Positions 151 through 15,442 are shown, counted from the first letter of the stretch. The stretch is DNA of 16,258 nt from Candidatus Acetothermia bacterium (GCA_046543235.1 JBKGZT010000031.1:1-16258); one strand, 5' to 3'. Numbers and translations are program-made. Notes: generated by a model from the letters alone, not told the origin.

Positions 151-1863
151 ATGGGACTGGACGGAATCACGCTCAGCAAACTCAAACGGGAACTCCAGGA
201 CGGGCTCACCGGAGGGTGGGTCAGGAAGATCTACCAGCCCCGACCCGAACTCGTCACGGTAAACGTCTGGAACGATGAAGACTACAGGCTCCTGATCTCC
301 TGCGGGGAGAACTTCCGGATCCAGCTGACGGAGCTAGAACTGGAGAACCCCGAAACGCCCCCCTCGTTCACCATGCTGCTCCGAAAGCACCTTTCCGGGG
401 GCAAAATCGCTCGGATAACCCAGGAGAGGGGACTGGACAGGATCATCAGGATATCGGTGGACAAGCAGGTAGAAGAAGCGGACGAGAAAAGGATCGAGAG
501 AAAGGAAATCTACATCGAACTAATGGGCCGCAACAGCAACCTCTACCTCGTCCAGGACGGGGAGATCCTCGGGGTTTTACGGGAGAGGAAAAGCAGAAAC
601 AGGGATACGACACCGGGCGGTCGATACGAACTTCCGCCAGGACAGGACAAGCTGGATCCATTTGAACTGACCCAGGAGGAGTTCTTCGATCTCACCCGGC
701 CGGACGATCCGATCTGGAGGAACCTGCTGAACGGAATTGACGGGATAGGTCCCACCCTTGCCAGGGAGGTTCCAACACGGGCAGGGATACCTGATGACCG
801 GGTCGACCTTTCCGAATCAGAACGTGAATCCCTCTGGGAGGCGGCGGAGGAGCTCTTTGACGAACTTTCTTCCAGGGACTTTACTCCGCGGGTCTACCAG
901 GACGACGGAATCCCCGTAGAATTCAGCCCCGTCCGGCTCGAGTCGTTCGCCGACAAAGAGGAACTGACCTATAATTCCCTGAGCAGGGCGCTCGACCATT
1001 ACTACAAGGCCCGCGAAACCAGTTTCGAAACGGTGGAACTGAGAGAAAAAGTCGAGGATACTATAGAAGAGGAACTGGATCGCGTGGAAGGGGCATTGAA
1101 AAACGTAAAAGACCAACTGGAACAATCCCGGAACCGGAAGGAACTAAAGCGGACCGGGGATATCATACTGGCCAACCTCGCGGAGCTCGAAAAAGGCATG
1201 GAGGCCGCGGAACTGGCCGATCCATACAATGAAGGTGAAAAAAAGAAGATAGACCTGGACCCTTCCAAGACACCCCAGGAAAACGCCGAACGCTACTACG
1301 AACGCTACAAGAAACTCAAGCGCGGGAAAGAAAAGTTAGAAAAGAGAAAACGTAATCTGCAAAAAGAACTCGACTTCCTTACAAAACTCGAAAAAAAATA
1401 TGAAGAATCCGAAAACCCGGAAGATTTGGCGAAGATAGAAGGTATTTTAAAGGAGAAGGGCTACATTGACGAAGAGGTCGGCTCCCCCAACCAGGGAAGT
1501 CGAGGCGGACCGAAAGAGTATTGGATCAAGGGCTACAAGGTCATGGTGGGGCGCAACGCCAGACAGAACGACGACCTGGTACGAGAGGCTTCGAGGGACG
1601 ACCTCTGGTTTCACGTTAGAAACTACGCCGGCGCCCACGTGGTAGTCGTCACGGACGGCCGGCCGGACCAGGTGCCTGAGGAGGTAATAATCAAGGCAGC
1701 TCAGTTGGCCGCCGCCAATTCCAAAGCGCGGGGGGCTGAGCGGACGTCGGTGAGTTATACTGAAGTCAGGTACGTGGACAAGCCAAAAGGAGCCAAGCCG
1801 GGCCTTGTCCAGATCACGAACGAGCACACGGTCAACGTATCCCCGAAAGAGGTGATATCATAG
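151..1863 (+). CDS. rqcH: Ribosome quality control protein RqcH/Rqc2 (NFACT family, 'fibronectin-binding protein A' FbpA-like)
   Basis: 570 aa. NFACT-N motifs (KIYQP, PPSFTMLLRKHL, LDRII, IELMGRNSN), HhH-like GIDGIGP, a coiled-coil middle (LDPSKTPQENAERYYERYKKLKR) and NFACT-R (VGRNARQND, DLWFH..GAHVV, YTEVRYVDKPKGAKPGLV). SD GAGGT at 139-143. Confidence 0.93.
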   Translation: MGLDGITLSKLKRELQDGLTGGWVRKIYQPRPELVTVNVWNDEDYRLLISCGENFRIQLTELELENPETPPSFTMLLRKHLSGGKIARITQERGLDRIIRISVDKQVEEADEKRIERKEIYIELMGRNSNLYLVQDGEILGVLRERKSRNRDTTPGGRYELPPGQDKLDPFELTQEEFFDLTRPDDPIWRNLLNGIDGIGPTLAREVPTRAGIPDDRVDLSESERESLWEAAEELFDELSSRDFTPRVYQDDGIPVEFSPVRLESFADKEELTYNSLSRALDHYYKARETSFETVELREKVEDTIEEELDRVEGALKNVKDQLEQSRNRKELKRTGDIILANLAELEKGMEAAELADPYNEGEKKKIDLDPSKTPQENAERYYERYKKLKRGKEKLEKRKRNLQKELDFLTKLEKKYEESENPEDLAKIEGILKEKGYIDEEVGSPNQGSRGGPKEYWIKGYKVMVGRNARQNDDLVREASRDDLWFHVRNYAGAHVVVVTDGRPDQVPEEVIIKAAQLAAANSKARGAERTSVSYTEVRYVDKPKGAKPGLVQITNEHTVNVSPKEVIS

Positions 1864-1880
1864 CTTCCACGATAGTAAAT

Positions 1881-2585
1881 TTGATCATACTGCTTCTAGC
1901 GTTGCTGCCGGCAGCTATTGTTCACGAGTACTCACACGGCTACGTAGCCTGGAAACTGGGCGACCCTACGGCCAAGCAATCCGGCAGGCTGACACTGAAC
2001 CCCGTTCCCCATATCGATCCGGTGGGCACGGTTCTGGTTCCCCTGGGGCTGATCCTGATCCAGTTACTATTCGGAGGAGGTCTATTCATAATTGGCTGGG
2101 CCAAACCGGTACCCATCGATCCCCGTTACTTTCAGGATAAGGAACGAGGGATGCTCCAGGTCGGGCTGGCAGGTCCTCTGAGCAACTTGCTGATGATGTC
2201 CCTGGCCGCCGTCCTGGGACGTCTGCTCGTCCCGCTCTACGTAAACTTCTTTCTGGGTAGAAACGGTGGTTTTTTCTTTCAATTCTCCCAAAACGGACTC
2301 CGCACGCTGATATACTTCTTCGGAGTTTTCGTCATCATCAACATAATCCTTGCCCTCTTTAACCTGATCCCGATGCCGCCACTGGACGGATCACGAATTC
2401 TCAGTTACTTCCTTTCCTACAGAGGGAAACAGATCATGGCTCGGATGGAACAGTACGGTTTCCTGATAATTCTGGCCTTCCTCTGGCTGGGAGGGGACCT
2501 GTTCTTCTGGGTAATTCAACGTATCTGGACTTTAGTGCTCGGCCAGAACTGGATCAACCTAATCGCTGCGGGAGGTATGCTTTAA
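1881..2585 (+). CDS. Site-2 protease family (peptidase M50) intramembrane zinc metalloprotease
   Basis: HExxH motif (HEYSH), GDPTAKQSGRLTLNP..HIDPVG, GWAKPVP, AGPLSNL and NLIPMPPLDG. Several hydrophobic helices. Start is uncertain: TTG at 1881 or in-frame ATA at 1860. Confidence 0.92.
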   Translation: MIILLLALLPAAIVHEYSHGYVAWKLGDPTAKQSGRLTLNPVPHIDPVGTVLVPLGLILIQLLFGGGLFIIGWAKPVPIDPRYFQDKERGMLQVGLAGPLSNLLMMSLAAVLGRLLVPLYVNFFLGRNGGFFFQFSQNGLRTLIYFFGVFVIINIILALFNLIPMPPLDGSRILSYFLSYRGKQIMARMEQYGFLIILAFLWLGGDLFFWVIQRIWTLVLGQNWINLIAAGGML

Positions 2586-2608
2586 GGCTTTTTTGAAGCC
2601 GACAAACC

Positions 2609-3478
2609 ATGGACGAGAAAGGTCGCGGCGAAGAAGTCGGCAAGTTATACGTGGTAGCTACACCCATTGGTAACCTGTCCGACATTACCTTCCGGGCAGT
2701 AGAGGTACTCCGGAATGTCGACGCCATCGTGGCGGAAGACACCCGTCATTCCGGACGGCTTCTGGACGAGTACGAAATAGAAACCCCGTTTACGAAGAGT
2801 TACTACCAGGGAGCAGGAGAGAAGAGGCGGGAAGAAATAACCCAGAAGCTCCTCTCGAACACGGACCTGGCCCTGATAAGCGATGCCGGTACACCGCTGA
2901 TATCCGACCCAGGCTTCAAGCTCGTCCGCCGCGCCAGGGAGGAAGGGGTCGAAATAATTGGGGTTCCCGGGCCCAACGCGGCCGTTACCTGCCTCTCGGT
3001 TTCCGGCCAGCCCACCGACAGTTTCGTCTTCGACGGACAAACCCCGAAGAAAGAAAGGAGGAAACGGGAGTACTTCGAGGAACTTCGGACCAGGAGAAAA
3101 ACCACGATCCTCTACGATTCACCCCACCGGGTCGAGGCAACCCTGGAAATCGCCTCCGATATAATTCCTGAAAGGTCGGTCACGGTCTGTCGCGAGCTGA
3201 CGAAACGGTTCGAACGGACAACAAAAGGATCCTTTGAGGAGGTTCTGAATCAGTTAAAGGAGGGTAAGTCCAAAGGGGAATTCACCCTGGTAATAGCCGG
3301 GGCGAGCGAGGAAGAAATAGCTCTGGTCAAGCAGGAAAGGTATGGGGATATCCCGATAGAACAACAGTTCGAGGGGATCAAGAAGTTCAAGGGTTTATCC
3401 AGAAAGGAGGCAATGCGAGAACTCGCGGAGTTGAGAGGTTCTTCCAGAAACGAGATTTACGACGAGCTAAATAAGTAA
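2609..3478 (+). CDS. rsmI: 16S rRNA (cytidine1402-2'-O)-methyltransferase
   Basis: GKLYVVATPIGNLSDITFRAVEVL, AEDTRHS, LISDAGTPLISDPGFKLV, YDSPHR, CRELTKRFE, KGEFTLVI and C-terminal SRNEIY. Confidence 0.95.
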   Translation: MDEKGRGEEVGKLYVVATPIGNLSDITFRAVEVLRNVDAIVAEDTRHSGRLLDEYEIETPFTKSYYQGAGEKRREEITQKLLSNTDLALISDAGTPLISDPGFKLVRRAREEGVEIIGVPGPNAAVTCLSVSGQPTDSFVFDGQTPKKERRKREYFEELRTRRKTTILYDSPHRVEATLEIASDIIPERSVTVCRELTKRFERTTKGSFEEVLNQLKEGKSKGEFTLVIAGASEEEIALVKQERYGDIPIEQQFEGIKKFKGLSRKEAMRELAELRGSSRNEIYDELNK

Positions 3479-3480
3479 AG

Positions 3481-3960
3481 TCAGGCGTGTTTGTCCGCTA
3501 CCGTGGAAGCCCCGTAGGAATCCGGCTTAGTCCTAACGTCGAACCCGCTTCCGATTATCATTCCGACCACTTCGTCGATTATTTCCTTGGTCTTGCCGTG
3601 CTGGCCCACGTCGACGTGTATCTCCAGGTTATAATCCAGTAGAGTTACCTCCTCAAGGTGTTCCATCAGGTCCTTCGCCAGGTCGAACGAAAGAAAGGCT
3701 TCCTTGTATATTTTGTCCCGCAGAGTATAAATATCGTCCTCAGTCTCCCGCTTCCAGAAATAGCGCCCACCTTTACCCATCCTGTGAATGACGATTGCAC
3801 TGACGAAATCTATCTCGTGGTCACCGGAGGCGGCGTGTGAATCCGTCCCCACGACTATTTCGTACTCGGACCTTTGATCCTTTTCCATCATTCGGATGAT
3901 TTCGTCGACGACCCCGTCGAAATCCAATCTGCCTTTGGTCGGATTATGAAACTGTATCAA
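3481..3960 (-). CDS. RNase H-like YkuK family protein (DUF458)
   Basis: IVVGTDS, FVSAIVIHRMGKGGRYF, LRDKIYKEA, LEIHVDVG..GKT and KPDSYGASTVADKH are typical of the YkuK family. TTG start. Confidence 0.88.
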   Translation of the reverse strand: MIQFHNPTKGRLDFDGVVDEIIRMMEKDQRSEYEIVVGTDSHAASGDHEIDFVSAIVIHRMGKGGRYFWKRETEDDIYTLRDKIYKEAFLSFDLAKDLMEHLEEVTLLDYNLEIHVDVGQHGKTKEIIDEVVGMIIGSGFDVRTKPDSYGASTVADKHA

Positions 3961-4014: not shown

Positions 4015-5343
4015 CTAAAATTCGGAACGGAGCAGTTCTTCGGCGGCGTAATAACCGCTCCTGACCGCACCCTCCATGGTGGCCGGCCAGCCCGTATCCG
4101 TCCAATCACCGGCCAAATAAAGACCTTCGGGCGCCGGGTTTTGAGGTGGTCGAAGCTCTTTGCTTTCCGGAGAAGGGACGAAGGTCGCCCGGGGTTGGTG
4201 CAGAACGACCGAGTCGGTCAATTCCGCTTCCCGGATACTCGGAAGCGGGACCGACAGATCGCGCCTGACCTGGCTGACGAGCTCGTCTGAAGGGAGCTCC
4301 TCAAGTTTACCCGGGTCAGAAATCGTCAGGCAAATATGCCCCTCGTTACTTCCGTCGTTCGCGAGGTTAAATACCCAGCCGGACGTACCTTCAAGAAAGC
4401 CAAAGAAGTCCTTCTCCATCACGCTTTCACGGAAGAATAGGTGAACGTTTATAATCGAATTCCAATCCAGCCGCCAGAACGGATTCGAAAAACTAGCTAG
4501 GATCGAATCAGGGAGCAGCTTCTCCAGGACGTGTCCCTGTACCGCGGAGAGAACCAGGTCCGCTTTAACTTCATCGCCGCCTTTGAGTCGGATCAGGTTT
4601 TGGCTTCCCTCTCCTGGTTCAATTTCTACCACCTGGCCGGAAGTCCGAACCTCCCCTCCTTTGCCTTCGATAAAATCCCCGGTCTTCTCCCCAATCCTTC
4701 CCATGGAACCATTTAGACGCCCCAGCTTCCCTCCCTGTCTATCCAGCAGAACCCGCCTTAGTATCATCAAACCCATCGAAATGCTCACTTCGTCAACCTC
4801 GGCATTCAGCGTTGGGACTATGACCTGGTTCCACAATCTCCTGATCGATCTCTCGCTCGCTCCCCTCTTCCTCAACCAGCTTCCGAAGCTAACGTCTCCC
4901 GGATCGTTATCTTGTCCGAACGCTAACGCCGATACTACCGGGCCGACCAGGCTCAACTTGTCCATAAAAGACATGAAGGGAAAACGGAAAGTCGCCAACA
5001 AAAGGTGAAAGGGGGGCGGGAGGCGGTTGCTCCGTACCCGGCCGACGCGTCCGGACTTGTCCCTGAATTCCACGTCCAGCCGAGACTGAGTCCGGAGATT
5101 ATCCGAAAGTCCAACGAGGGAGAGGAACTTCCTGTAAAATTCGAAGCCGGAGACGTGCATGTGCTGGCCAAGATCCAGAGTCCGCCCCCGGTAGTCAATG
5201 GAGGCCGTTCTACCCCCGAGGGAAGGCGATTTCTCCAGAAGAACCAGTTCACCGGAATATCCCTCTTCCAGTATCTTGGCGCTGGCGGAGAGTCCGGCCA
5301 GCCCACCACCGATTACGACTAATCGCTCAGGCTGACGAACCAT
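4015..5343 (-). CDS. hpnE: Hydroxysqualene dehydroxylase (FAD-dependent, squalene-forming)
   Basis: Rossmann motif VVIGGGLAGLSA, LEKSPSLGGR, DLGQH, LPPPFHL, IINVHL, RATF and LYLAGDWTDTGWPATMEGAVRSG. Lies directly after hpnC-hpnD. Confidence 0.92.
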   Translation of the reverse strand: MVRQPERLVVIGGGLAGLSASAKILEEGYSGELVLLEKSPSLGGRTASIDYRGRTLDLGQHMHVSGFEFYRKFLSLVGLSDNLRTQSRLDVEFRDKSGRVGRVRSNRLPPPFHLLLATFRFPFMSFMDKLSLVGPVVSALAFGQDNDPGDVSFGSWLRKRGASERSIRRLWNQVIVPTLNAEVDEVSISMGLMILRRVLLDRQGGKLGRLNGSMGRIGEKTGDFIEGKGGEVRTSGQVVEIEPGEGSQNLIRLKGGDEVKADLVLSAVQGHVLEKLLPDSILASFSNPFWRLDWNSIINVHLFFRESVMEKDFFGFLEGTSGWVFNLANDGSNEGHICLTISDPGKLEELPSDELVSQVRRDLSVPLPSIREAELTDSVVLHQPRATFVPSPESKELRPPQNPAPEGLYLAGDWTDTGWPATMEGAVRSGYYAAEELLRSEF

Positions 5344-6197
5344 TGACCCAGCACGGAACTAATCTTTCGGGCTGTGCTTACCCTGGCCCGTTCGCCCCAG
5401 ATCTTCCATCCGGAGGCTTCCATCTTGTCAAGCAATTTACTGTACACTCCGTACAGTCCGGCGGGACAGGCCCGCGCCCTCCGGGAAAGCTGGAAAAATA
5501 GCCTTTTTCCGCTTTTAAAATATTTCCTTGCCCGGGCCGCTTCGAAGTCCATCAGTTCTCTGAATTCCTCGTTTTCTCCGGTCTCTGCCACTTCGTCAAA
5601 GCTGCAGCCGAACCTTTCCAGGTCCTCCTGAGGAATGTAGATTCTGTCTCTACGGTAGTCCTCGGCCACGTCCCTGATTATATTCGTCAGCTGCATGCCG
5701 AGACCGAAATCCACCGCGTATTTCCGGGCCCGCCAATCCTGGTAGCCGAAGACCTCGATCAGGGCGAGGCCCACCGCGGAAGCCACCCTGAAACAATAGA
5801 CCTTGAGGTCCTCGAAAGTGGGATAGCGCCTCCTGATCAAATCCATCTCAACGCCAGAAATTAGCTGTTCGAAATAGCTTTTAGGTATTCCGTACTTCTC
5901 CACCGGGGCTGCCAGTGCCCTATAAAGCTTGTCTTGGGGATGACCGGCGTATAGCGCGTCCAGCTTCTCCCGTTCCTCCTGGAGTCTATCCTTCTTCCTG
6001 GCCAGCTCCCAGGAACCGTCTGCGATGTCGTCGCTCCGTCGTGCGAAAGTATAAATGGCGTAAACTGCCGATCGTTTTTCCTTCGGGAGAGTAATTATCG
6101 CCCAGTAGAAGTTTTTCGCCCTCTCCCTGGTAATTCTCCTCGAGTATTCTTCGGGGCTTTCATCTTCCTTCATAACCCCCTCAGGCTGCTTTCGCAT
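5319..6197 (-). CDS. hpnD: Presqualene diphosphate synthase (head-to-head prenyltransferase)
   Basis: AKNFYWAIITLPKEKRSAVYAIYTFARRSDDIAD, GVEMDL, YCFRVASAVG, LGMQLTNIIRDVAED and RIYIP. SD GGAGGT precedes ATG 6197; there is an alternative ATG at 6173. Confidence 0.9.
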   Translation of the reverse strand: MRKQPEGVMKEDESPEEYSRRITRERAKNFYWAIITLPKEKRSAVYAIYTFARRSDDIADGSWELARKKDRLQEEREKLDALYAGHPQDKLYRALAAPVEKYGIPKSYFEQLISGVEMDLIRRRYPTFEDLKVYCFRVASAVGLALIEVFGYQDWRARKYAVDFGLGMQLTNIIRDVAEDYRRDRIYIPQEDLERFGCSFDEVAETGENEEFRELMDFEAARARKYFKSGKRLFFQLSRRARACPAGLYGVYSKLLDKMEASGWKIWGERARVSTARKISSVLGQWFVSLSD

Positions 6198-7095
6198 CGA
6201 GCAACCTCCGAAACGGCTTTCTCACCAGGTTTGAGAGGAACAACCAAACCTTTTCACCCTTCGATAGTGTAGGGCGTCCGTGTAAGACGTCGTAGTTCTC
6301 CGCCTCGATCTTATCGAGGATCTTCAAACCACCAAGGTTAAAAAGCCGGACGTCCGTTCTGATTCTGCCATCCAGGGTAGGAACCAGCTCCATCCCCTCC
6401 TCGAGCAGCTCCCTGGCCCTTGAAACCTCAAATCGCATCAGCTCCACGAACCTCTCGTTATAGACACGGTTTCTCAGGTCCTCCTTCGAGTAACCGTACC
6501 TTTCCAGGTCCTCTTCCGGTATATAAATCCGCCCCATTTTTTCGTCACGGTCAACGTCCTGCCAGAAGTTCGTCAGTTGAAGGCCGGTGCAGGTGCTATC
6601 GGAAAGCTCTCGGCGTCTTTCGTCCATGTATCCAAAAATAGCCAGGAACACCCTTCCAACCGGGTTAGCCGAATGATCACAGTAGCGGAGGAGGTCGTCG
6701 TAAGTCTCGTAAGAAAAATTCCTTTGATCCATCCTGTTGGCCTCGATCAGTTTTTTGAAAGGTTCCTCGTCAAGCGAGTTCTCTTCGACCGTGTCGCGCA
6801 GCGCGAGCAGAATCGGGTTTTTCGGCTCTTCCCCCCGAAAAACCGATTCCAGCTCCTCCTCCCAGCGGTTGAGAGCCTCTACGTTCCCTTCCTCCAGCTC
6901 ATCACCGAGGTCGTCTGTGTACCGGCTATAGGCGTAGAGAGCATAGACGTACTTCCTCTTCTCGGCCGGCATCATCCTGCTCACGACCGTAAAGTTCTCG
7001 TAGTGCTCGGTAGCTATATCTCTACAGAGGTCGTAAGCCTGACTTACCGAATAGTCCCTCTTATAAAGTTGGGGCGATATCTCCTTCAGTTCCAC
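6181..7095 (-). CDS. hpnC: Hydroxysqualene synthase (squalene synthase HpnC)
   Basis: Diagnostic HYENFTVVS, YAYSRYTDDLGDE, ANRMDQ, YCDHSANPVGR, SDSTCTGLQLTNFWQDV, GRIYIP and YDVLHGRPTL. GTG start with SD AGGTGA. Confidence 0.93.
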   Translation of the reverse strand: MELKEISPQLYKRDYSVSQAYDLCRDIATEHYENFTVVSRMMPAEKRKYVYALYAYSRYTDDLGDELEEGNVEALNRWEEELESVFRGEEPKNPILLALRDTVEENSLDEEPFKKLIEANRMDQRNFSYETYDDLLRYCDHSANPVGRVFLAIFGYMDERRRELSDSTCTGLQLTNFWQDVDRDEKMGRIYIPEEDLERYGYSKEDLRNRVYNERFVELMRFEVSRARELLEEGMELVPTLDGRIRTDVRLFNLGGLKILDKIEAENYDVLHGRPTLSKGEKVWLFLSNLVRKPFRRLLDAKAA

Positions 7096-7158
7096 GATAT
7101 TTCACCTGGTAAAGGATAAATCATACAGGACCTTGGCAACAAGAGTTCGGGGCTCGCC

Positions 7159-7608
7159 CTAGCCACCTAGTAGCTGCAGGACGACTTCCCTCTTCCTGGA
7201 GTGGTCCAGTTCTATCAGAAAGACCCGCTGCCATTTTCCAAGTTCGAGCTCGCCGTCGATTATCGGTACTGTCTCGCTCGCCCCCAGCCCAAGTGACTGA
7301 CAGTGGGCATGCCCGTTTGGCACTTCATCCGGAGTCATGTTTTCCGTCCTGACCGAGAAATCGTTATGCCGGTAGTACTCGTCCTCGGGAGCAAAATTCT
7401 CGAGGAACTCGGCCATGTCCTTCTTCAGCAGCGTCTCGTTTTCGTTTATCCTGATCGCGGCCGTAGTATGTCGACTAAATATTACCAGAGCTCCCGACTC
7501 AACCTCCCTGTCTTCGACGAACTTTTCCACCTCGTCGGTTATGTCAATGAACTCCGGGGCCTTAGTCGTCTGGATCTGCAAAACCTCCGTGGATGTCGAG
7601 GTCAACAT
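7159..7608 (-). CDS. yjbQ: YjbQ/UPF0047 family protein ('secondary thiamine-phosphate synthase')
   Basis: FIDITDEV, FSRHTTAAIRINENE, YRHND, NGHAH and LELGKWQRVFLIELD..RKR. Strong SD AGGAGGT. Confidence 0.9.
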   Translation of the reverse strand: MLTSTSTEVLQIQTTKAPEFIDITDEVEKFVEDREVESGALVIFSRHTTAAIRINENETLLKKDMAEFLENFAPEDEYYRHNDFSVRTENMTPDEVPNGHAHCQSLGLGASETVPIIDGELELGKWQRVFLIELDHSRKREVVLQLLGG

Positions 7609-7631
7609 CTCTCAAACCTCCTTTTTGTGTT

Positions 7632-8480
7632 CTAAGAACTATCCAACTTTTCCAGGGTCTCCTCCACAGCCGAAACAGCGGATTGGGGGGTAGACGCACC
7701 TGCGGTTATCCCCACTTTATCCACCCCTTCAACCCATTCCGACTCTATCTCCGTTTCGTCCTTAATGTGATGCGTCTCTACTCCAGTGTTACCGGCAACC
7801 TCAGCGAGCTTACGGGTGTTGGCAGAATTCTTGCCTCCAACAACGAGAATCAAATCCACCTTATCCGCCAGCCTTTCAGCCGCCTCGTACCTCCTTTTGG
7901 TCTCACCACAGGTCGTATCAACTATCTTTACGTCCTCGAGTTCCTCCCGGTTAGCCCGGAGGAACTCAGCAGCAAAATCAAAAAAGTACTTTTTCCCCTT
8001 GGTAGTTTGCGACAGCAGAGCAACTCTTCCTTCGGGTATCGGCACGCTCTTCTCCGGGTCCAGGATTGCTACCCCTTTCCCGTTCAACCAACCCAGTATA
8101 TTTCTGACTTCCGTATGGTCCTTTTCCCCGTAAATAACTACCTGATAACCCTTGTTGACCAGGTCTTCTGCCGTCTCCTGAGCTTTCTTAACTATCGGGC
8201 AGGTCGTATCGATCAGGTCCAACCCCTTGCTCTCGATCTCGCTGTGGATTTCCCGACCGGCGCCGTGGGCGGTTATTACCACCGAGTCCGTGTCCACCCT
8301 GTCAAGGGAGTTAACTACCTCGGCACCTTCTTCTGCCAGGTCCTCGACCACGTTCGGGTTATGAACTATCGGCCCCAGGGTATCGATTTTTTCCTGTTCT
8401 TCCAGCTTTCCCTCCACTATATCGACGGCCCGTCTGACGCCGAAACAGAACCCAAATAAATCAGCCTTTATTATTTCCAT
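7632..8480 (-). CDS. ispH: 4-hydroxy-3-methylbut-2-enyl diphosphate reductase (LytB)
   Basis: GFCFGVRRA, GPIVHN, ITAHG, DTTCP, DHTEV, SQTT, DTTC.ET..R, VVGGKNSANT and VGITAGASTP, with all three Fe-S cysteines present. Start reassigned from 8537 to ATG 8480 (SD GAGGAG; MEIIKA matches the family N-terminus). Confidence 0.95.
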   Translation of the reverse strand: MEIIKADLFGFCFGVRRAVDIVEGKLEEQEKIDTLGPIVHNPNVVEDLAEEGAEVVNSLDRVDTDSVVITAHGAGREIHSEIESKGLDLIDTTCPIVKKAQETAEDLVNKGYQVVIYGEKDHTEVRNILGWLNGKGVAILDPEKSVPIPEGRVALLSQTTKGKKYFFDFAAEFLRANREELEDVKIVDTTCGETKRRYEAAERLADKVDLILVVGGKNSANTRKLAEVAGNTGVETHHIKDETEIESEWVEGVDKVGITAGASTPQSAVSAVEETLEKLDSS

Positions 8481-9546
8481 TACTCTCCTCTTTGATATAC
8501 CTCCTTGTCCTTCGTTCCAGGATTTCTGCAACTTCATCGGCTCCGGAAGAAGTGATCAACTTCTCCTGTTCGCCGTTTACGTAAAGCAGTCCACCCTCGG
8601 CAGTCCCGACGATTCCAAGATCGGCCGAACCGGCCTCGCCAATTCCGTTGACGGCACAGCCCATCAGAGCTACCCGGGGAGAATCCTCCAAATCAGCCAG
8701 CCTCCTTTCGAGTTTTCGGCCGATTTTCTCCACGTCGACCTCCGTCCTGCCACAGGTAGGACAGGAAATTACCTCCACTCCTCTATTCCTTATCCCGAGG
8801 GATCCCAGAATATCGTAAGCAGTAAGGACCTCCTCGCTCGGTGGAGCGGTAAGGGAGACCCGAATCGTGTCTCCGATCCCCTCCTGCAGCAAAACGCCGA
8901 TCCCGATCGAGGATTTTACGAGACCGCTCCTTCCACCTCCGGCCTCCGTTACCCCCAGGTGGAGAGGGTAATCGTACTTTTCGTCAAACATCTCGTTGGC
9001 CCTGATCGTCCTGTTTACGTCGCTCGACTTGAGGGAGACCACTATTTCGTCGAAACCTTCGTCCTCCAGGAGCTCGATCTCCTTTTCAGCACTTATGACC
9101 ATCCCCCGGGCCGTCCTACCGTACTTCTCCAGGATGTCCTTGTCCAGCGATCCGGAGTTTACCCCGACTCGGATGGGGATCGACCGGGAGGCAGCCTCAC
9201 GTGCGATCTCGCCAATCGCCTCTTCGTCAGTTATGTTACCGGGGTTGAGTCGGAGCTTGTCGACTCCGGACTCGATGGCCGTAAACGCGAGCTCGGGGGA
9301 GTAATGTATGTCCGCAATAATCGGAACGGGGCTCTCTCTAACGATCTCCGGTAATTTCTCACCCGCCTTGCTGTCAGGAACCGCCACCCTGACCAGCTCA
9401 CATCCCAGGTTAACCAGCCCTTTTATCTGTTCCAGCGTCTCTTCGACTTCTGCAGTGGAAGTGTTGGTCATGGACTGCACTACGACGGGATTGTCGCCGC
9501 CGATCTTAACTCCACCCACGTCCACGACTCTACTCCGCCCTGTCAT
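8461..9546 (-). CDS. ispG: (E)-4-hydroxy-3-methylbut-2-enyl diphosphate synthase (GcpE), two-domain type
   Basis: IGGDNPVVVQSMTNT, VRVAVP, IADIH, LRLNPGNI, IRVGVNSGSL, SLKSS, YPLHLGVTEAG, GIGDTIRVSL, SCPTCGR and MGCAVNG.GE. Confidence 0.97.
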   Translation of the reverse strand: MTGRSRVVDVGGVKIGGDNPVVVQSMTNTSTAEVEETLEQIKGLVNLGCELVRVAVPDSKAGEKLPEIVRESPVPIIADIHYSPELAFTAIESGVDKLRLNPGNITDEEAIGEIAREAASRSIPIRVGVNSGSLDKDILEKYGRTARGMVISAEKEIELLEDEGFDEIVVSLKSSDVNRTIRANEMFDEKYDYPLHLGVTEAGGGRSGLVKSSIGIGVLLQEGIGDTIRVSLTAPPSEEVLTAYDILGSLGIRNRGVEVISCPTCGRTEVDVEKIGRKLERRLADLEDSPRVALMGCAVNGIGEAGSADLGIVGTAEGGLLYVNGEQEKLITSSGADEVAEILERRTRRYIKEESNGNNKG

Positions 9547-10553
9547 CTCGCGATCCTCTCCATTTGTTCTTTTTCGACGTAACCGTTATCGAGAAACCAA
9601 TCCACGGCCTTTTTCAGGGATTTGGCCATCGGCGTCTTCGGGACTCCAAGCTCGTCCAGCCAGGGGGTTAGATCTATTCTCTCGTCCACCCTGGTGGATT
9701 GAATGGAGGCAATCGGTATTCTGGGCCTTCGATTCAACAAAAACCCTTCGAAGAACTCGTCGACCCAGGCTGCAGTCAGCGCCAGAGGGTAGGGTATTCG
9801 AAAGCGCGGTCCCGGAAGACCGGTTATCCGATGCAGTTGCTGGAGCACCTCCGAGAGGTTCGTATTCCTGTTACCTAGGACGTACCTCTTACCGGATTCT
9901 CCCTTTTCCATGGCGAGGACGTGTCCTTCTGCAACGTCCTCCACGTCAACGATATTGAAATCCATGTCGACGAAGCCAGCCATTCCTCCCTTTAGAAATT
10001 CCAGGATCATCCGTCCCGTCGGTGTAGGACCGTAATCACCGGGACCGACCGGTACCGTCGGACTTGCAATCACCACGTCCAGCTCGGATTCCGCTTCCAA
10101 CTCTAGAGCCTGCCTTTCGGCAAAATACTTGGATATCTTGTAGTCGCTCGGTAACTGTTCCGTCGAGCCCGGGAGGCTTTTTCCATCCTCCGAGTGGGCT
10201 AGCAACGAAGCAGTGCTAGTAAATACCGCCCTCTCCAGTCCGGCTTCTTCGGCCACGTTCAGGACGTTCCTGGTTCCGTCCACGTTCGTCTCGTAAAAAT
10301 CCTCGTAGTTCGAAGACCAGAAGCTGTATAGGGCGGCGGTGTGAAAGACCCCGTCAACACCGCTGACGGCATCCTCCATTTCGGACCGATTCCTTATATC
10401 CCCCGTTACCATTTCAGCCTCTACTCCTTCCAGGTTGACGGTATTGCTGGACTCCCTGATTAGTGCCCTAACTTCGTATCCCTCCCGCAATAGCTGCTTG
10501 ACCAGGTTGCTTCCCACAAAACCGTTAGCCCCGGTTACGAGAAACTTCATCAC
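9543..10553 (-). CDS. hpnA: Hopanoid-associated NAD-dependent epimerase/dehydratase (extended SDR, dihydroflavonol reductase-like)
   Basis: LVTGANGFVG, VFHTAALY, TNVDGTRNV, FTST, catalytic YKISK, PTVPVGPGD..PTPTG and VDVEDVAEGH...GKRYVLG. The hpn context supports the call. Start is GTG 10553 or ATG 10550. Confidence 0.85.
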   Translation of the reverse strand: MMKFLVTGANGFVGSNLVKQLLREGYEVRALIRESSNTVNLEGVEAEMVTGDIRNRSEMEDAVSGVDGVFHTAALYSFWSSNYEDFYETNVDGTRNVLNVAEEAGLERAVFTSTASLLAHSEDGKSLPGSTEQLPSDYKISKYFAERQALELEAESELDVVIASPTVPVGPGDYGPTPTGRMILEFLKGGMAGFVDMDFNIVDVEDVAEGHVLAMEKGESGKRYVLGNRNTNLSEVLQQLHRITGLPGPRFRIPYPLALTAAWVDEFFEGFLLNRRPRIPIASIQSTRVDERIDLTPWLDELGVPKTPMAKSLKKAVDWFLDNGYVEKEQMERIAR

Positions 10554-10557
10554 GCGA

Positions 10558-11241
10558 TCACCCCAACAGGACGGGCACCACGGCTTCTACGGCCCGGGCA
10601 AGTCTCTTTCTCGCCCGGACGAGGTCAGTGAAGGCCCCAGGTAACTCGGTCGCTCCCTTCGGGTGCCGAAACAGCCACAACATGAGATTCCATGGCTTGA
10701 CCACCCCGGAATTGTCATAACAGTGATCGGGAGGCAGAGTTCGATCGATATCGTCAAAAACCACCCGCAAACCGAGAAACGGTATATCGTTATCCCGGGC
10801 AACTCTCGCCTGCCAGTAGGTTTCCTGGTCGACTATCGGATACTCTTCACCCTCGAGTGCCCGCTTATCCTCCGATTCCGTCACGGCTTCCTCCAGGGTA
10901 AGCAGTCCCGTGGTTCTTGTATCCTCCTCGAGGACTAGCTCCGCCCGTTTTCTGAACTCCTCGTCCGTCCTGTACTCTCCTTCGGTTACTTCGGATCCGA
11001 TCTTTTCCACGAGACAGAGATCCCCGGTAGTAAACTCGGGATCTATCGAGCCCGCAAAACCGACGGAAAGCATTCCTTCCAGCTCCGAACTCAGTTCCGC
11101 TACATCTAGAGAGTCCTTAACGCCGGTCCTGCCGATTCCCGTAAAAATCAGTTCGTGTTGAGACCAGTTTTCGCTCTCCATATCGAGACCACCGCCGAGA
11201 CCCTCCAGCTCCAGCCTTGTGGATGCCAGAACGGATAACAT
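10558..11241 (-). CDS. hpnG: Hopanoid-associated nucleosidase/phosphorylase (MTAN/PNP fold)
   Basis: TGIG, LSVGFAGSIDP..GDL, K..L, VDQET (canonical VDMES) and IPFLGLRVVFD...LP. Immediately downstream of hpnH. Confidence 0.78.
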   Translation of the reverse strand: MLSVLASTRLELEGLGGGLDMESENWSQHELIFTGIGRTGVKDSLDVAELSSELEGMLSVGFAGSIDPEFTTGDLCLVEKIGSEVTEGEYRTDEEFRKRAELVLEEDTRTTGLLTLEEAVTESEDKRALEGEEYPIVDQETYWQARVARDNDIPFLGLRVVFDDIDRTLPPDHCYDNSGVVKPWNLMLWLFRHPKGATELPGAFTDLVRARKRLARAVEAVVPVLLG

Positions 11242-11246
11242 GTTAA

Positions 11247-12290
11247 CTAAGAACCGGACAGGATATTTTTCACGCTATCCGGAACGGAACTCTTTACCAC
11301 GTCAATTAGACCGTCAGTGCTCCGGAGGGAGTCGATGGTTCCAGCAGTATCGAACCCGGAATGTATCATACAGCTGTTACACCTCCGGTCGTTTCCCGGC
11401 CCGAAGTCCTCCCAGAGCTCCTTTTCCAGAATTTCATCCACGGAATCAACGTGTTCATCGGCCAGAACGTAACACGGTTTTCGCCAGCCCCTGACCGTAT
11501 ACGTCGGTGAGGCCCAGGCAGTACATTCGAGTTCCCGCTTGCCGCGGAGAAAATCCAGGTAAAGCGGAGTATTATAGAGGGGGAAATCATCCACCACGTC
11601 GGGATCCAGGATTTCCTGAAAAACCTCGATTGACTCCTTACGCTCGAGGAAGTGTTCTTCAGCGCTCCGGTCGACGGCGGAATAGTTGTAGCCGGGTGCC
11701 AGCATTATCCCTTCGACCCCGGCCTTGGTCAGCCTTCGGAAGAGCTCGTGCAGGTCGTCCGGATCGCTTTCCTTGAATATCGTCGTATTAGTCGTCACCC
11801 GGTAACCCATGTCGACCGCCTTTTCCAGGGCGGTAAAAGCCCGCTCGTAAGTACCCTCCCTGTTCGTGAACTTGTCGTGAACTTCCTCGGTTCCGTCGAG
11901 ATGGACGGCAAAAGCCAGTTTATCCGAGGGCTCGAACTCGTTCAGCTTTTCCTCGAGCAGGAGACCGTTGGTACAGAGGTAGATGTAGTAGCCCTCGTCT
12001 ATCAGGTTCTCGACGATCGTTTCTATTTCCGGATGAATCAGCGGTTCTCCGCCGGAAATCGATATGACCGGTGCCCCCGATTCGTCGGCCGCCTCCAGGA
12101 CCTCATCGGGTGACAGCCTTTCGTCCATATAATCGGAATACTCCCTGATTCTCCCACATCCGGTACATCTCAAGTTACACTGTTCGAGCGGCTCTATGAT
12201 CGTCACAAGCGGGAACCTCTTTTTTCCCTTGGCCATCTGTGCGGCCGCATAACTCGCTATCTTGGCGTTCATCTTCAAAGGTCTTCCCAT
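11247..12290 (-). CDS. hpnH: Adenosylhopane synthase-like radical SAM enzyme
   Basis: RFPLV..IEPL.QCNLRCTGCG, SGAPVISISGGEPLIHP, IYLCTNGLLL, VHLDG, VTTNTT and PGYNY. C-terminal DUF3463-type region CTAWASPT..GWRKPCY..W..FG.G.D.RC..CM.H.GF. SD AGGAGG. Confidence 0.93.
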   Translation of the reverse strand: MGRPLKMNAKIASYAAAQMAKGKKRFPLVTIIEPLEQCNLRCTGCGRIREYSDYMDERLSPDEVLEAADESGAPVISISGGEPLIHPEIETIVENLIDEGYYIYLCTNGLLLEEKLNEFEPSDKLAFAVHLDGTEEVHDKFTNREGTYERAFTALEKAVDMGYRVTTNTTIFKESDPDDLHELFRRLTKAGVEGIMLAPGYNYSAVDRSAEEHFLERKESIEVFQEILDPDVVDDFPLYNTPLYLDFLRGKRELECTAWASPTYTVRGWRKPCYVLADEHVDSVDEILEKELWEDFGPGNDRRCNSCMIHSGFDTAGTIDSLRSTDGLIDVVKSSVPDSVKNILSGS

Positions 12291-12299
12291 AAATTCCTC

Positions 12300-13328
12300 C
12301 TATTTCTTTCTATTCAACAAAAATTGTCCGAAATTCTTCAGGTCGGCTTTGGCCCAATCCCGTAACTCAGTCCGTTTAAGTTCTCTTTCCGCCTCTGCCC
12401 AGAACTCCCTGGCTTTTTCATTCGTCCCCTCTCTTGCACCTAGTTCCTCTAGGATCCTTTTGGTCTCCTCCACCTCTTCCGAGTCAAGATCATTCCGGCG
12501 AAAATAAAGCCTCTTTAGCTCCGCCAGCATGGAACCTTCGCCCTTCTGCACGGCATAAACCACGGGATAACTCATCTTCTTTTCGATCAAATCGGATTGG
12601 GCGGACTTCCCGGACTCCTCGGGCTGACCCCATATTCCAAGCCAGTCGTCCCTGATTTGATAGACGTAACCGAGCAGCTTCCCCAGCCGTACGAGACTCC
12701 TTTCGTCTCCGGCTTCTTCCCCGTATATCGCCCCAACGTGGAAGGAAGCCTGAAGCAAAGCACAGGTCTTGTCCCGTATCATCTCCAGATAGCTTTCGAC
12801 GTCGACGTCCTTCCTCTCGGCGTACGTCAGGTCCCTAACCTGACCCTGGATCATTCGAAGAGAATAATTTGAGAGTGCGTCCAGTACCCTCAACGTCCTC
12901 CCGGGCCTGGAGCCATCTCCGAGCTCGGTCAGGGCCAGCAACGACATATCCTTTATTCCATCGCCCGCGTTTATCGCCTGGGCCGGTCCCCACTTCGCCT
13001 GCACGCTCTTCCTACCCCTGCGCGTCTCAGCGTCGTCCTGAATATCGTCGTGAACCAGAGAAAAGTTGTGAATTAACTCCAGGGAAACGGCCCCCGGAAG
13101 GGCATCCTCGGGGTCACCTCCCAGCGCCTCGGCGGTGAAGAGTGCCAGGGATGGTCTTATCGCTTTTCCTTTCAGTTCTTCCTCCTCGCCTCCTTCGAGC
13201 CCAAGGTGGTAGTTGACCATTTCGTGCAGCCTGTCTTCCCGACCGCTTATGAGTTCGCGGATCTTTTTACCGACTTTCTTTTTATGCTTTTTTATGTTAT
13301 CCGGTATTCCTTCCACTGCTTCCGTCAT
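12300..13328 (-). CDS. Short-chain trans-polyprenyl diphosphate synthase (IdsA/GGPP-FPP synthase type)
   Basis: GKAIRP, ELIHNFSLVHDDIQD...RRGR (FARM), AINAGD, GQ.RD, KT and YQIRDDWLG.WG....GK...SDL.EKK. Confidence 0.92.
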   Translation of the reverse strand: MTEAVEGIPDNIKKHKKKVGKKIRELISGREDRLHEMVNYHLGLEGGEEEELKGKAIRPSLALFTAEALGGDPEDALPGAVSLELIHNFSLVHDDIQDDAETRRGRKSVQAKWGPAQAINAGDGIKDMSLLALTELGDGSRPGRTLRVLDALSNYSLRMIQGQVRDLTYAERKDVDVESYLEMIRDKTCALLQASFHVGAIYGEEAGDERSLVRLGKLLGYVYQIRDDWLGIWGQPEESGKSAQSDLIEKKMSYPVVYAVQKGEGSMLAELKRLYFRRNDLDSEEVEETKRILEELGAREGTNEKAREFWAEAERELKRTELRDWAKADLKNFGQFLLNRKK

Positions 13329-14068
13329 TTTTCCTCGTCCTTAATTATTCCTTCTTTCAGGGCGAACTCCCTGATTTCTTCGGCAGAGTGAATATCAAGC
13401 TTCTCCATCATGTTTGCGCGGTGAGTCCTTACCGTTTCCACGCTCCTCGAAAGGATATCGGCTATCTCCTTGTTGGAATTGCCCTCGGCCACCAGCTGAA
13501 GTATCTCCCTCTCGCGAGACGTTAGCTTTTCCAGAACGTCCGGCTCTATGTCCTTAAGCTCTCTCTCGATCATCTCCACTAGAGAGGTCAAGATCGGAGG
13601 CGACATGTAATAATAACCTTCCCTGACCGACTGGATTGCCTCCTCCAACTCGTTTATGGCGTCTTCTTTGAGCAAATATCCCGAAGCACCTGTCTTGATC
13701 GCCCTCCTTATGTATCCCTCGTCGTCGTACATAGAAAGGAAGATGACGTCGGTTTTTAGTTCCTGCTCCTTAATCTTTCTGGTAGTTTCCAGACCGTTTA
13801 ACCGAGGCATCGATATATCCAGTATAGCTATATCCGGATTTTTCTCCTCGACCAACTCCAGGGCTTCGTAACCGTCCCCGGCCTGGCCAACTATTTCCAC
13901 CCTGTCGTTTCCTGAAAGCAGCGTTTCTATTCCCTGTCGGACCAACGTATGGTCATCTGCCAGGACTATCTTGAGCTTGCTTCCCGGCTCCCCTTCACCT
14001 TTTAGATCCGAACTGGATTCCCCTTCGGTATTGCCTTCCCCACCTTCGGTCTCGAGATATAAAAACAT
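13325..14068 (-). CDS. NarL/FixJ-family response regulator (REC + LuxR HTH)
   Basis: KIVLADDHTLVRQG, phosphoacceptor region ILDISMPRLNG, LSM, GASGYLLKE and LTSREREILQLVAEGNSNKEIA...TVRTHRANMMEKL. SD AGGTGAT. Overlaps the prenyl synthase by ATGA. Confidence 0.95.
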   Translation of the reverse strand: MFLYLETEGGEGNTEGESSSDLKGEGEPGSKLKIVLADDHTLVRQGIETLLSGNDRVEIVGQAGDGYEALELVEEKNPDIAILDISMPRLNGLETTRKIKEQELKTDVIFLSMYDDEGYIRRAIKTGASGYLLKEDAINELEEAIQSVREGYYYMSPPILTSLVEMIERELKDIEPDVLEKLTSREREILQLVAEGNSNKEIADILSRSVETVRTHRANMMEKLDIHSAEEIREFALKEGIIKDEEK

Positions 14069-14185: not shown

Positions 14186-15442
14186 CTACTCCATGGGCAG
14201 AAGAATTTCGGCCCTGGTGCCCTTACCTGCTTCTGAATCAATTTCGAACTTTCCTCCCGCTATGTTGACGTTTTCCCTTATTCCCTGCAGACCCAGGCCC
14301 GGCTCCTTTACCACTTCATCGGGGTTGAACCCCTGCCCATCGTCCTCGATAACCAGCCTGACGCTCGTATTACTAACTCCCAGCTCCAGGGATATGCTCT
14401 CGGGGTTCCCGTGTTTGATGGCGTTGTTCAGGAGTTCGTGGGCCGCCCTGTACAGGATCGTCCTCTTTTCCTCCTCCCGAAGCTCTATATCGGGGTTCAA
14501 GGATGTTTCGAACCCTATATCGGTTGATTCCTTGTAGTTTTCCACCAGTTCACGTAAAGCCGCCGTAAGTCCCAGCTCGTCCAGAGTAGAAGGACGAAGA
14601 AGATGTGAGAGGTTTCTGCTCTCGCTGATGGCGTCGCTGAGCAGGTCCTCTATTTCCCTTATCCGGGAATCCTCCATTTCCTTCCCCAGAATGTCCAGCT
14701 TCATTTTAATCCCCATAAGCCTCTGGCCGAGTTGGTCGTGAAGGCGCTTGGCGATCCTTCTTCTTTCCTCCTCCCGTGCGGAAATCAGTTCCCGCCAGAG
14801 GCTTTCGAGTTTGGCCTCCCTCTCCCGGAGCGACTCGTTTTTTTCGCGGAAAAGTTTGGCAAACATCTGGACGGTATACGCAGTTGACACGTAGAGACCC
14901 ACGCCTCCCGTCAGTATCGTGGTCGTGACGTAAAAGGAGCTCTCGTGAAGGTTCGCGGTCCTTTCGAATATTGACCAGTGGGCTATCAGACCGGCGTATT
15001 CGGCGTAGCTAATTCCGGTAAAGAACCCTATTACCAGGAAGGTAATCGTCCAGCCCTTCTTTGGGGGGAGGAAGAAGTTCGCGTAAAGTACCGAAAAGAC
15101 GTAGAATGCGACCCCTATCCATTCCGTACCTCCGATTATATGTATCAGATACGTCAGGATCGCCACCTCGATCACGAAGTAACCGAAGTGAACGTTGTGC
15201 AACGCCTCCTTTGATTTCTGGGCTTCTATCAACCTGGCGAAGGGTATGGTGATAATTTCCCACATCAAGGGTGAAAATATCAAGGGCAAGGGGAAATTAA
15301 GACCTGCCCCAAACCTGAAATAGAGTGCGAGGACGAGGAAGATAGTCAGCGTTACGCGTCGGACCCGGATCGTCTTCAGGATTATCTCCTTCAGTTCGTC
15401 CAGGCTCCTTCTCCGCTGATCTTGCTCAAGATAGCTTTTCAT
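14186..15442 (-). CDS. Membrane-bound sensor histidine kinase, HisKA_3 (NarX/DesK/LiaS class)
   Basis: About six N-terminal hydrophobic helices, H-box EEERRRIAKRLHDQLGQ, LRPSTLDELGL, N-box YRAAHELLNNAIKH, G1 IEDDGQGF, G2 GLGLQGIRE and GKGT. Confidence 0.94.
   Translation of the reverse strand: MKSYLEQDQRRRSLDELKEIILKTIRVRRVTLTIFLVLALYFRFGAGLNFPLPLIFSPLMWEIITIPFARLIEAQKSKEALHNVHFGYFVIEVAILTYLIHIIGGTEWIGVAFYVFSVLYANFFLPPKKGWTITFLVIGFFTGISYAEYAGLIAHWSIFERTANLHESSFYVTTTILTGGVGLYVSTAYTVQMFAKLFREKNESLREREAKLESLWRELISAREEERRRIAKRLHDQLGQRLMGIKMKLDILGKEMEDSRIREIEDLLSDAISESRNLSHLLRPSTLDELGLTAALRELVENYKESTDIGFETSLNPDIELREEEKRTILYRAAHELLNNAIKHGNPESISLELGVSNTSVRLVIEDDGQGFNPDEVVKEPGLGLQGIRENVNIAGGKFEIDSEAGKGTRAEILLPME

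Follow-up and report, generated by a model that had tools for sequence, protein, structure and literature searches.

A probable hopanoid gene cluster with its cyclase gene on another contig

The window analysed here, a stretch of 16,258 nucleotides from a Candidatus Acetothermia bacterium (GCA_046543235.1, JBKGZT010000031.1:1-16258), is one whole contig (C21) of a 1.32-Mb, 97-contig, 87%-complete metagenome-assembled genome (MAG; assembly G000). It carries a row of ten hopanoid and isoprenoid genes and no gene for squalene-hopene cyclase (SHC, encoded by shc). We find that the window very probably carries an ordinary hopanoid biosynthesis cluster of Candidatus Bipolaricaulota, whose pathway is complete with shc at a second locus of the same genome. 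A first-pass annotation of this DNA had proposed instead a pathway without shc, leading to a non-hopanoid adenosyl- or ribosyl-isoprenoid lipid. This headline had to be given up, since an intact shc is present in G000 and SHC scored above the TIGR01507 cut-off in 30 of the 41 genomes surveyed, that of the window counted. Among the explanations that the annotation had offered for the missing gene, the presence of shc elsewhere in the genome proved right, the gene being located on contig C31 of the same assembly. The three others, namely an acyclic substrate, a non-homologous cyclase and scavenged diploptene, are unnecessary, and no support for them was found. Because an intact cyclase gene lies on another contig of the same genome, an unusual lipid pathway is not needed, and the product is likely to be ordinary C35 hopanoids. 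A full hopanoid gene set in a mostly uncultured anaerobic phylum bears on the possible sources of hopane biomarkers. There is also a practical lesson: when one MAG contig shows a cluster that lacks an expected gene, the whole bin and its relatives must be checked for it.

The first-pass annotation had itself proposed a TIGR01507 search of the genome and its relatives; SHC was found, the very outcome that it had set against its own idea. In the whole assembly the search gave one match, at bases 639-2549 of C31, with 802.8 bits (cut-off 431.1), covering model positions 14-637 of 640 without internal stops. The open reading frame (ORF) encodes 636 amino acids and also matches SQHop_cyclase_C of Pfam (494.9 bits). 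Squalene-hopene cyclases are defined by a DxDD(TA) catalytic motif and by QW repeats, and in the C31 protein the motif reads DTDD, at residue 380, and seven QxxxGxW repeats are present. It resembles the SHC of Alicyclobacillus acidocaldarius (PDB 1GSZ, 2SQC), its residues 13-634 aligning to 1GSZ with 689 bits and its DTDDTA aligning with DVDDTA of 1GSZ. Apart from a short acidic insertion near query residues 205-220, at an alignment gap, no notable difference between the two was seen. By these features the C31 protein is an intact squalene-hopene cyclase, with squalene cyclisation as its predicted activity.

On C31, which is 3126 bp long, shc is flanked by a xylose-isomerase-like TIM-barrel gene and a calcineurin-like (metallo)phosphoesterase gene. 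When 377 equal-sized fragments of the remaining contigs are ranked by tetranucleotide distance to the genome mean, C31 falls at the 23rd percentile, and its guanine-plus-cytosine (GC) content is 0.545 against 0.528 +/- 0.020 for the genome. The composition of C31 is typical of the bin, which supports its belonging to the window's genome. A promoter scan of C31 found no promoter-like site, and the terminator-like sites fall inside genes, which makes them uninformative. The shc contigs of many MAGs of the family (e.g. G000:C31, G002:C126, G007:C178, G011:C43 and G014:C51) break within about 0.6-1.4 kb of shc, and it is because of these breaks that the gene is found on short contigs. This suggests that a repeat or a strain-variable stretch near shc fragments the assemblies.

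Genes and spacing of the cluster

Window ORFs were scanned with NCBIfam and Pfam profiles against curated cut-offs. In the ORF listing of the window, ten minus-strand ORFs run from 13328 down to 4015; the largest intergenic gap is 63 nt (yjbQ to hpnC), and the other junctions are small gaps or overlaps. The ORF coordinates and the NCBIfam and Pfam names thus bear out what had been described at first, ten contiguous and co-oriented genes with gaps of at most 63 nt or overlaps. From the upstream end, the genes are the following.

12300..13328, minus strand: polyprenyl synthase, short-chain trans type (PF00348, 198.5 bits)
11247..12290, minus strand: HpnH, radical-SAM adenosylhopane synthase (TIGR03470, 393.9 bits, cut-off 225.05; Radical_SAM and DUF3463 domains)
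10558..11241, minus strand: divergent HpnG-like nucleosidase (best NCBIfam match TIGR03468, 84.2 bits, below the cut-off of 187.1)
9543..10553, minus strand: HpnA-like protein of the NAD-dependent epimerase/dehydratase family (TIGR03466, 345.2 bits, just below the cut-off of 367.65; Epimerase domain)
8461..9546, minus strand: IspG (NF001540, 441.7 bits, above cut-off)
7632..8480, minus strand: IspH, start revised from the longest ORF, 7632-8537 (TIGR00216, 253.9 bits)
7159..7608, minus strand: YjbQ/UPF0047 (TIGR00149, 126.3 bits)
6181..7095, minus strand: HpnC, squalene synthase (TIGR03464, 296.4 bits, cut-off 250.45)
5319..6197, minus strand: HpnD, presqualene diphosphate synthase (TIGR03465, 278.4 bits against a cut-off of 278.6, 0.2 bits short; SQS_PSY domain)
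4015..5343, minus strand: HpnE, hydroxysqualene dehydroxylase (TIGR03467, 317.4 bits, cut-off 283.05)

For the prenyl synthase at 12300..13328, no NCBIfam model scored above its cut-off. The first of its Asp-rich motifs reads DDIQDD and has Phe at position -5; the enzyme is presumed to be the supplier of farnesyl diphosphate (FPP); a second paralogue was found on contig C4 by tblastn against the assembly. HpnH has the CxxxCxxC cluster motif, as CNLRCTGC at residue 38. The product of 10558..11241 passes the Pfam PNP_UDP_1 profile at 32.7 bits and weakly matches a methylthioadenosine/S-adenosylhomocysteine nucleosidase (5UE1). In the three relatives tested, the gene directly after hpnH likewise had HpnG as its best match, below cut-off (63-104 bits). 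This product is best read as a divergent HpnG-like enzyme, a function suggested by gene position. The longest ORF of ispH starts too far upstream: the ATG at 8480 is preceded by a GAGGAG-like site, yields an N-terminus typical of IspH and is probably the true start, which makes ispH overlap the end of ispG by 20 nt.

The absence of shc from the window, on which the first reading had been built, is itself correct. The longest ORF encodes the 570-amino-acid RqcH, profile scans of 18 window proteins gave no match to an SHC family, and a tblastn search of the genome with its SHC as query matches C31 only. A remnant of shc at the ispG-ispH junction was considered and rejected, since the 20-nt gene overlap leaves no room for one and the SHC query has no match there.

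By tblastn, ispG and ispH have one match each in the assembly and are thus the only copies found. The block therefore also carries housekeeping isoprenoid synthesis, and the idea that these two genes are pathway-specific extra copies was rejected, as second copies were not found. For YjbQ, tblastn detected two more paralogues in the genome, on C41 and C37. A literature search found no paper that treats YjbQ together with hopanoids.

Predicted pathway

The roles of IspG/IspH, HpnC, HpnD and HpnE, SHC, HpnH and HpnG in hopanoid synthesis are established for these families. From the gene content, we infer the following route. IspG and IspH would finish the methylerythritol phosphate (MEP) pathway, the prenyl synthase would make FPP, and HpnD, HpnC and HpnE would convert it to squalene, which the unlinked SHC would cyclise to diploptene. 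HpnH would then add a 5'-deoxyadenosyl group to give adenosylhopane, and the HpnG-like nucleosidase would remove adenine, giving ribosylhopane and then bacteriohopanetetrol-type lipids. Part of the biochemistry of these enzyme families is set out in PMC5462960 and in PMC12324291 (Table 1). Elsewhere in the assembly, an RND/MMPL-type transporter is encoded at G000:C88:16153-18183 (L064), with a 291-bit match to HpnN, far below the cut-off of 752; it could be an exporter of hopanoid or of another lipid.

Two arrangements of shc among relatives

HpnH scored above its cut-off in 32 of the 41 genomes. In the window's genus, SHC was above cut-off in 12 of the 14 other genomes, the two misses being 70% and 84% complete; the absence of SHC from these two was confirmed with PF13243. 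HpnH above cut-off without SHC was seen in three genomes, G004 (70% complete), G005 (84%) and G033 (92%). One genome of the 41 had SHC and only a partial HpnH, and eight had neither. An apparent in-frame TGA inside shc in three genomes of another genus was rejected, as translation showed it to be the ordinary stop codon with which the match ends.

All 14 other hpn clusters examined in the window's family have the gene order of the window, with ispG directly followed by ispH and no shc. In G012, the two flanks of the cluster on its contig, about 13 kb and 40 kb long, also lack shc. At the shc loci of the family (nine loci in eight other genomes), the phosphoesterase gene lies downstream in eight and the TIM-barrel gene upstream in six; among the loci lacking the latter, two reach the contig end first and one is a second copy in G015. 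At none of the nine are hpn genes found beside shc. The SHC of C31 is 76-84% identical to those of its family relatives, in step with HpnH (77-87%).

Gene order was compared in 11 genomes from four other families of the class, the SHC-positive genomes G030 and G032, likewise of other families, being left out; all 11 have shc as part of the cluster, directly upstream of ispH. The gene on the other side of shc is ispG in ten genomes and hpnG in one. The first-pass annotation had stated that shc normally sits between hpnE and hpnG; this is not so in this lineage, where the in-cluster order is ispG (or hpnG)-shc-ispH throughout these 11 genomes. Otherwise, these Bipolaricaulia families share the order of the window, namely kinase, regulator, prenyl synthase, HpnH, (HpnG), (HpnA), IspG, IspH and YjbQ, with HpnC, HpnD and HpnE in the cluster in some genomes; their proteins are 27-66% identical to those of the window. 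The difference is that they have shc between ispG (or hpnG) and ispH, whereas the window's family has a direct ispG-ispH junction. YjbQ follows ispH in all 11 of these genomes and at all 14 family loci, and its identity between families (55-66%) is as high as or above that of the neighbouring enzymes.

G033 (completeness 92%, contamination 1%) comes from a different family of the class. It encodes an intact HpnH (387 bits) together with an HpnG-like protein and HpnA on one contig, G033:C74 (L068, 6592-9850), and a prenyl synthase, IspG and IspH, directly adjacent, on a second, G033:C16 (L077, 2575-5462). Neither SHC nor HpnC was detected in any part of this genome. The sister genome, G036, carries the complete set in its cluster. 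The GC contents (0.667 and 0.662) and the identity to G036 (HpnH 61%, IspH 64%, IspG 80%) fit one lineage. G033 may be a real case of hpnH without shc, or just lack a contig, and the acyclic-lipid idea might still apply to it, though not to the window's genome.

The second shc copy of G015, on G015:C105 (L029, 6334-8250), lies in a different setting, preceded by two MR_MLE enolase-family genes and an ABC peptide transporter and followed by genes for a low-molecular-weight phosphatase and ArsR. The SHC tree places this copy inside the window's genus, though G015 belongs to another. This copy is probably a mis-binned contig or the result of a transfer.

Probable relocation of shc

Because the family clusters lack shc at the ispG-ispH junction while other families of the class keep it there, shc most likely left this junction in an ancestor of the window's family and now lies at a separate conserved site, between the TIM-barrel and metallophosphoesterase genes. 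An SHC tree was built from 20 Bipolaricaulia sequences and 87 representatives of 600-730 amino acids, the latter taken from the 150 best of a 50%-identity library, of which the other 63 were dropped for length. FastTree separates the Bipolaricaulia SHCs into a clade of the family (support 100) and a clade of the rest (99). Both fall within one group of 26 rows, with six representatives, whose internal branching is not settled. A quick IQ-TREE run (LG+G4) on 34 rows, whose 14 representatives were picked after the first tree was known, gave the same picture. In the approximately unbiased (AU) test, a single clade of all 20 Bipolaricaulia SHCs was not rejected, the tree holding them together being 1.43 log-likelihood units better (p-AU 0.565). 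The trees fit the relocation of a native gene without proving it.

Points against and alternative explanations

Several points weigh against the reading of an ordinary, complete hopanoid pathway with a relocated cyclase gene. C31 is tied to the genome by binning, by composition and by synteny with other MAGs, and not by a physical link, and the genomes searched included no closed genome of the window's family. Within the cluster, HpnG (84 vs 187 bits), HpnA (345 vs 368 bits) and HpnD (by 0.2 bits) score below their curated cut-offs. Profile searches of the assembly found no HpnI, HpnJ or HpnN at cut-off; these scores suggest simple, untailored C35 hopanoids, in an assembly that is incomplete. 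In literature searches, no paper linking Bipolaricaulota to hopanoid lipids was found, the only related item being the legend of a preprint figure that names genes. Excerpts of PMC10667739, in which both terms occur, draw no link between Acetothermia and hopanoids, and excerpts of PMC12583986 hold nothing further on gene order. Finally, the SHCs of the family, those of the other Bipolaricaulia and a few further clusters form a polytomy, and the stem of the family clade is long (about 0.5 changes per column); therefore, a related foreign copy may instead have replaced the native gene, and relocation is not proven.

Such a replacement would mean that the in-cluster shc was lost and that a copy from another lineage was gained at the new site, the pathway still making ordinary hopanoids. 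The long stem agrees with it, as do the free trees, which do not place the family SHCs as sister to the other Bipolaricaulia SHCs, and the grouping of one representative (P0001) with the family clade at 93 in FastTree. We nevertheless regard it as unlikely, because forcing all 20 Bipolaricaulia SHCs into one clade gives a slightly better tree than leaving them free, and because the identity of SHC to that of other families (50-57%) matches that of HpnH (51-57%), IspG (50-53%) and IspH (47-54%).

It is very improbable that the organism truly lacks shc, with C31 mis-binned from another organism and with HpnH, HpnG and HpnA acting on an acyclic or scavenged substrate. C31 is indeed short and joined to the genome by binning only, and two genomes of the genus show no SHC, but these two are the incomplete ones mentioned above and the composition of C31 is typical of the bin. 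Moreover, the succession of TIM-barrel gene, shc and phosphoesterase gene recurs in independently assembled genomes of the family (8/9 loci), and the C31 SHC keeps step with HpnH in its identity to family relatives. A survey preprint (PMC12324291) reports HpnG, HpnI and HpnJ domains solely from genomes in which SHC and HpnH occur as well. As for an extra acyclic adenosyl- or ribosyl-squalene lipid, made despite shc by an HpnH that also accepts squalene, no point in its favour came from this analysis and we give it almost no credence, since HpnH is far above its equivalog cut-off (393.9 vs 225) and 51-57% identical to the HpnH of relatives with an in-cluster shc, with no sign of a separate type.

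Comparison with known hopanoid gene sets

The orders of the hpn genes are known for Zymomonas, Rhodopseudomonas palustris and Streptomyces coelicolor, where IspH or IspG and Dxs genes lie beside them. These clusters share with the window HpnC, HpnD, HpnE, HpnH, HpnG, HpnA, a prenyl synthase and embedded MEP genes. Unlike them, the window's genome has shc at a second locus, and ispG and ispH are both embedded in the cluster as the only copies found; in addition, yjbQ and an upstream pair of kinase and regulator genes are conserved with the cluster.

In Acidobacteria proven to produce hopanoids, the passages of PMC5462960 on gene order describe hpnCDE, ispA-shc-hpnH and hpnA-hpnG as separate clusters or as scattered genes. 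They place hpnCDE not directly upstream of shc and state a clustering of hpnH, shc and ispH. Since gene sets are split in these hopanoid producers, an unlinked shc is normal biology. The two cases differ in what is kept together, as shc stays with hpnH in Acidobacteria, whereas in the window's genome it is only shc that is set apart, hpnH remaining clustered with hpnCDE. For strain J31, the first cultured Bipolaricaulota strain, a figure legend (bioRxiv 10.1101/2025.11.21.689855, Fig. S12) names YjbQ, IspH, SHC, a hypothetical protein, adenosyl-hopene transferase and polyprenyl synthetase in one terpenoid cluster. As far as this legend goes, the J31 cluster matches the in-cluster shc order of the other Bipolaricaulia families.

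Upstream kinase and regulator, and flanking genes

Two further genes lie upstream of the prenyl synthase gene and are co-oriented with the cluster.

14186..15442, minus strand: sensor histidine kinase, HisKA_3 type (Pfam HisKA_3 and HATPase_c)
13325..14068, minus strand: NarL/LuxR-type response regulator (Response_reg and GerE domains)

The stop codon of the regulator gene overlaps the start of the prenyl synthase gene by 4 nt. At 12 of 12 family loci the regulator gene adjoins that of the prenyl synthase, as it does at 7 of 7 other-family loci that cover the latter. In all families of the class, kinase and regulator genes were seen ahead of the cluster whenever the retrieved sequence extended that far. 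The kinase is thus probably part of a conserved unit with the cluster. In some families, two regulators lie beside it. The N-terminal 200 or so amino acids of the kinase are hydrophobic, with short loops and no large extracytoplasmic domain in a simple hydropathy scan. DesK is a membrane sensor, and the DesK type combines HisKA_3 with a multi-pass membrane sensor that has no large extracytoplasmic domain. The nearest solved chains to the kinase are DesK cytoplasmic domains, at an E-value of only about 3e-11.

Control of the block by membrane state is plausible from these features. More tentatively, the block from the kinase to HpnE could form one membrane-homeostasis unit, in which kinase and regulator would adjust transcription of the hopanoid genes and of the genome's sole ispG and ispH to the state of the membrane, and in which YjbQ would be a candidate isoprenoid or hopanoid enzyme; we hold this to be possible but doubtful. 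A literature search on two-component control of hopanoid synthesis, covering titles and the starts of abstracts, found no paper on a kinase beside hpn genes.

The genes on both sides of the ten-gene run had been called unrelated to it. This does not stand for the upstream side, where the conserved kinase and regulator pair precedes the cluster across families. At the hpnE end, window positions 151-3960 hold genes for RqcH (NFACT), an M50 peptidase, RsmI and an RNase H-like protein (PF04308). This flank is kept within the family and not in the other-family loci that extend past HpnE (L032, L033 and L069).

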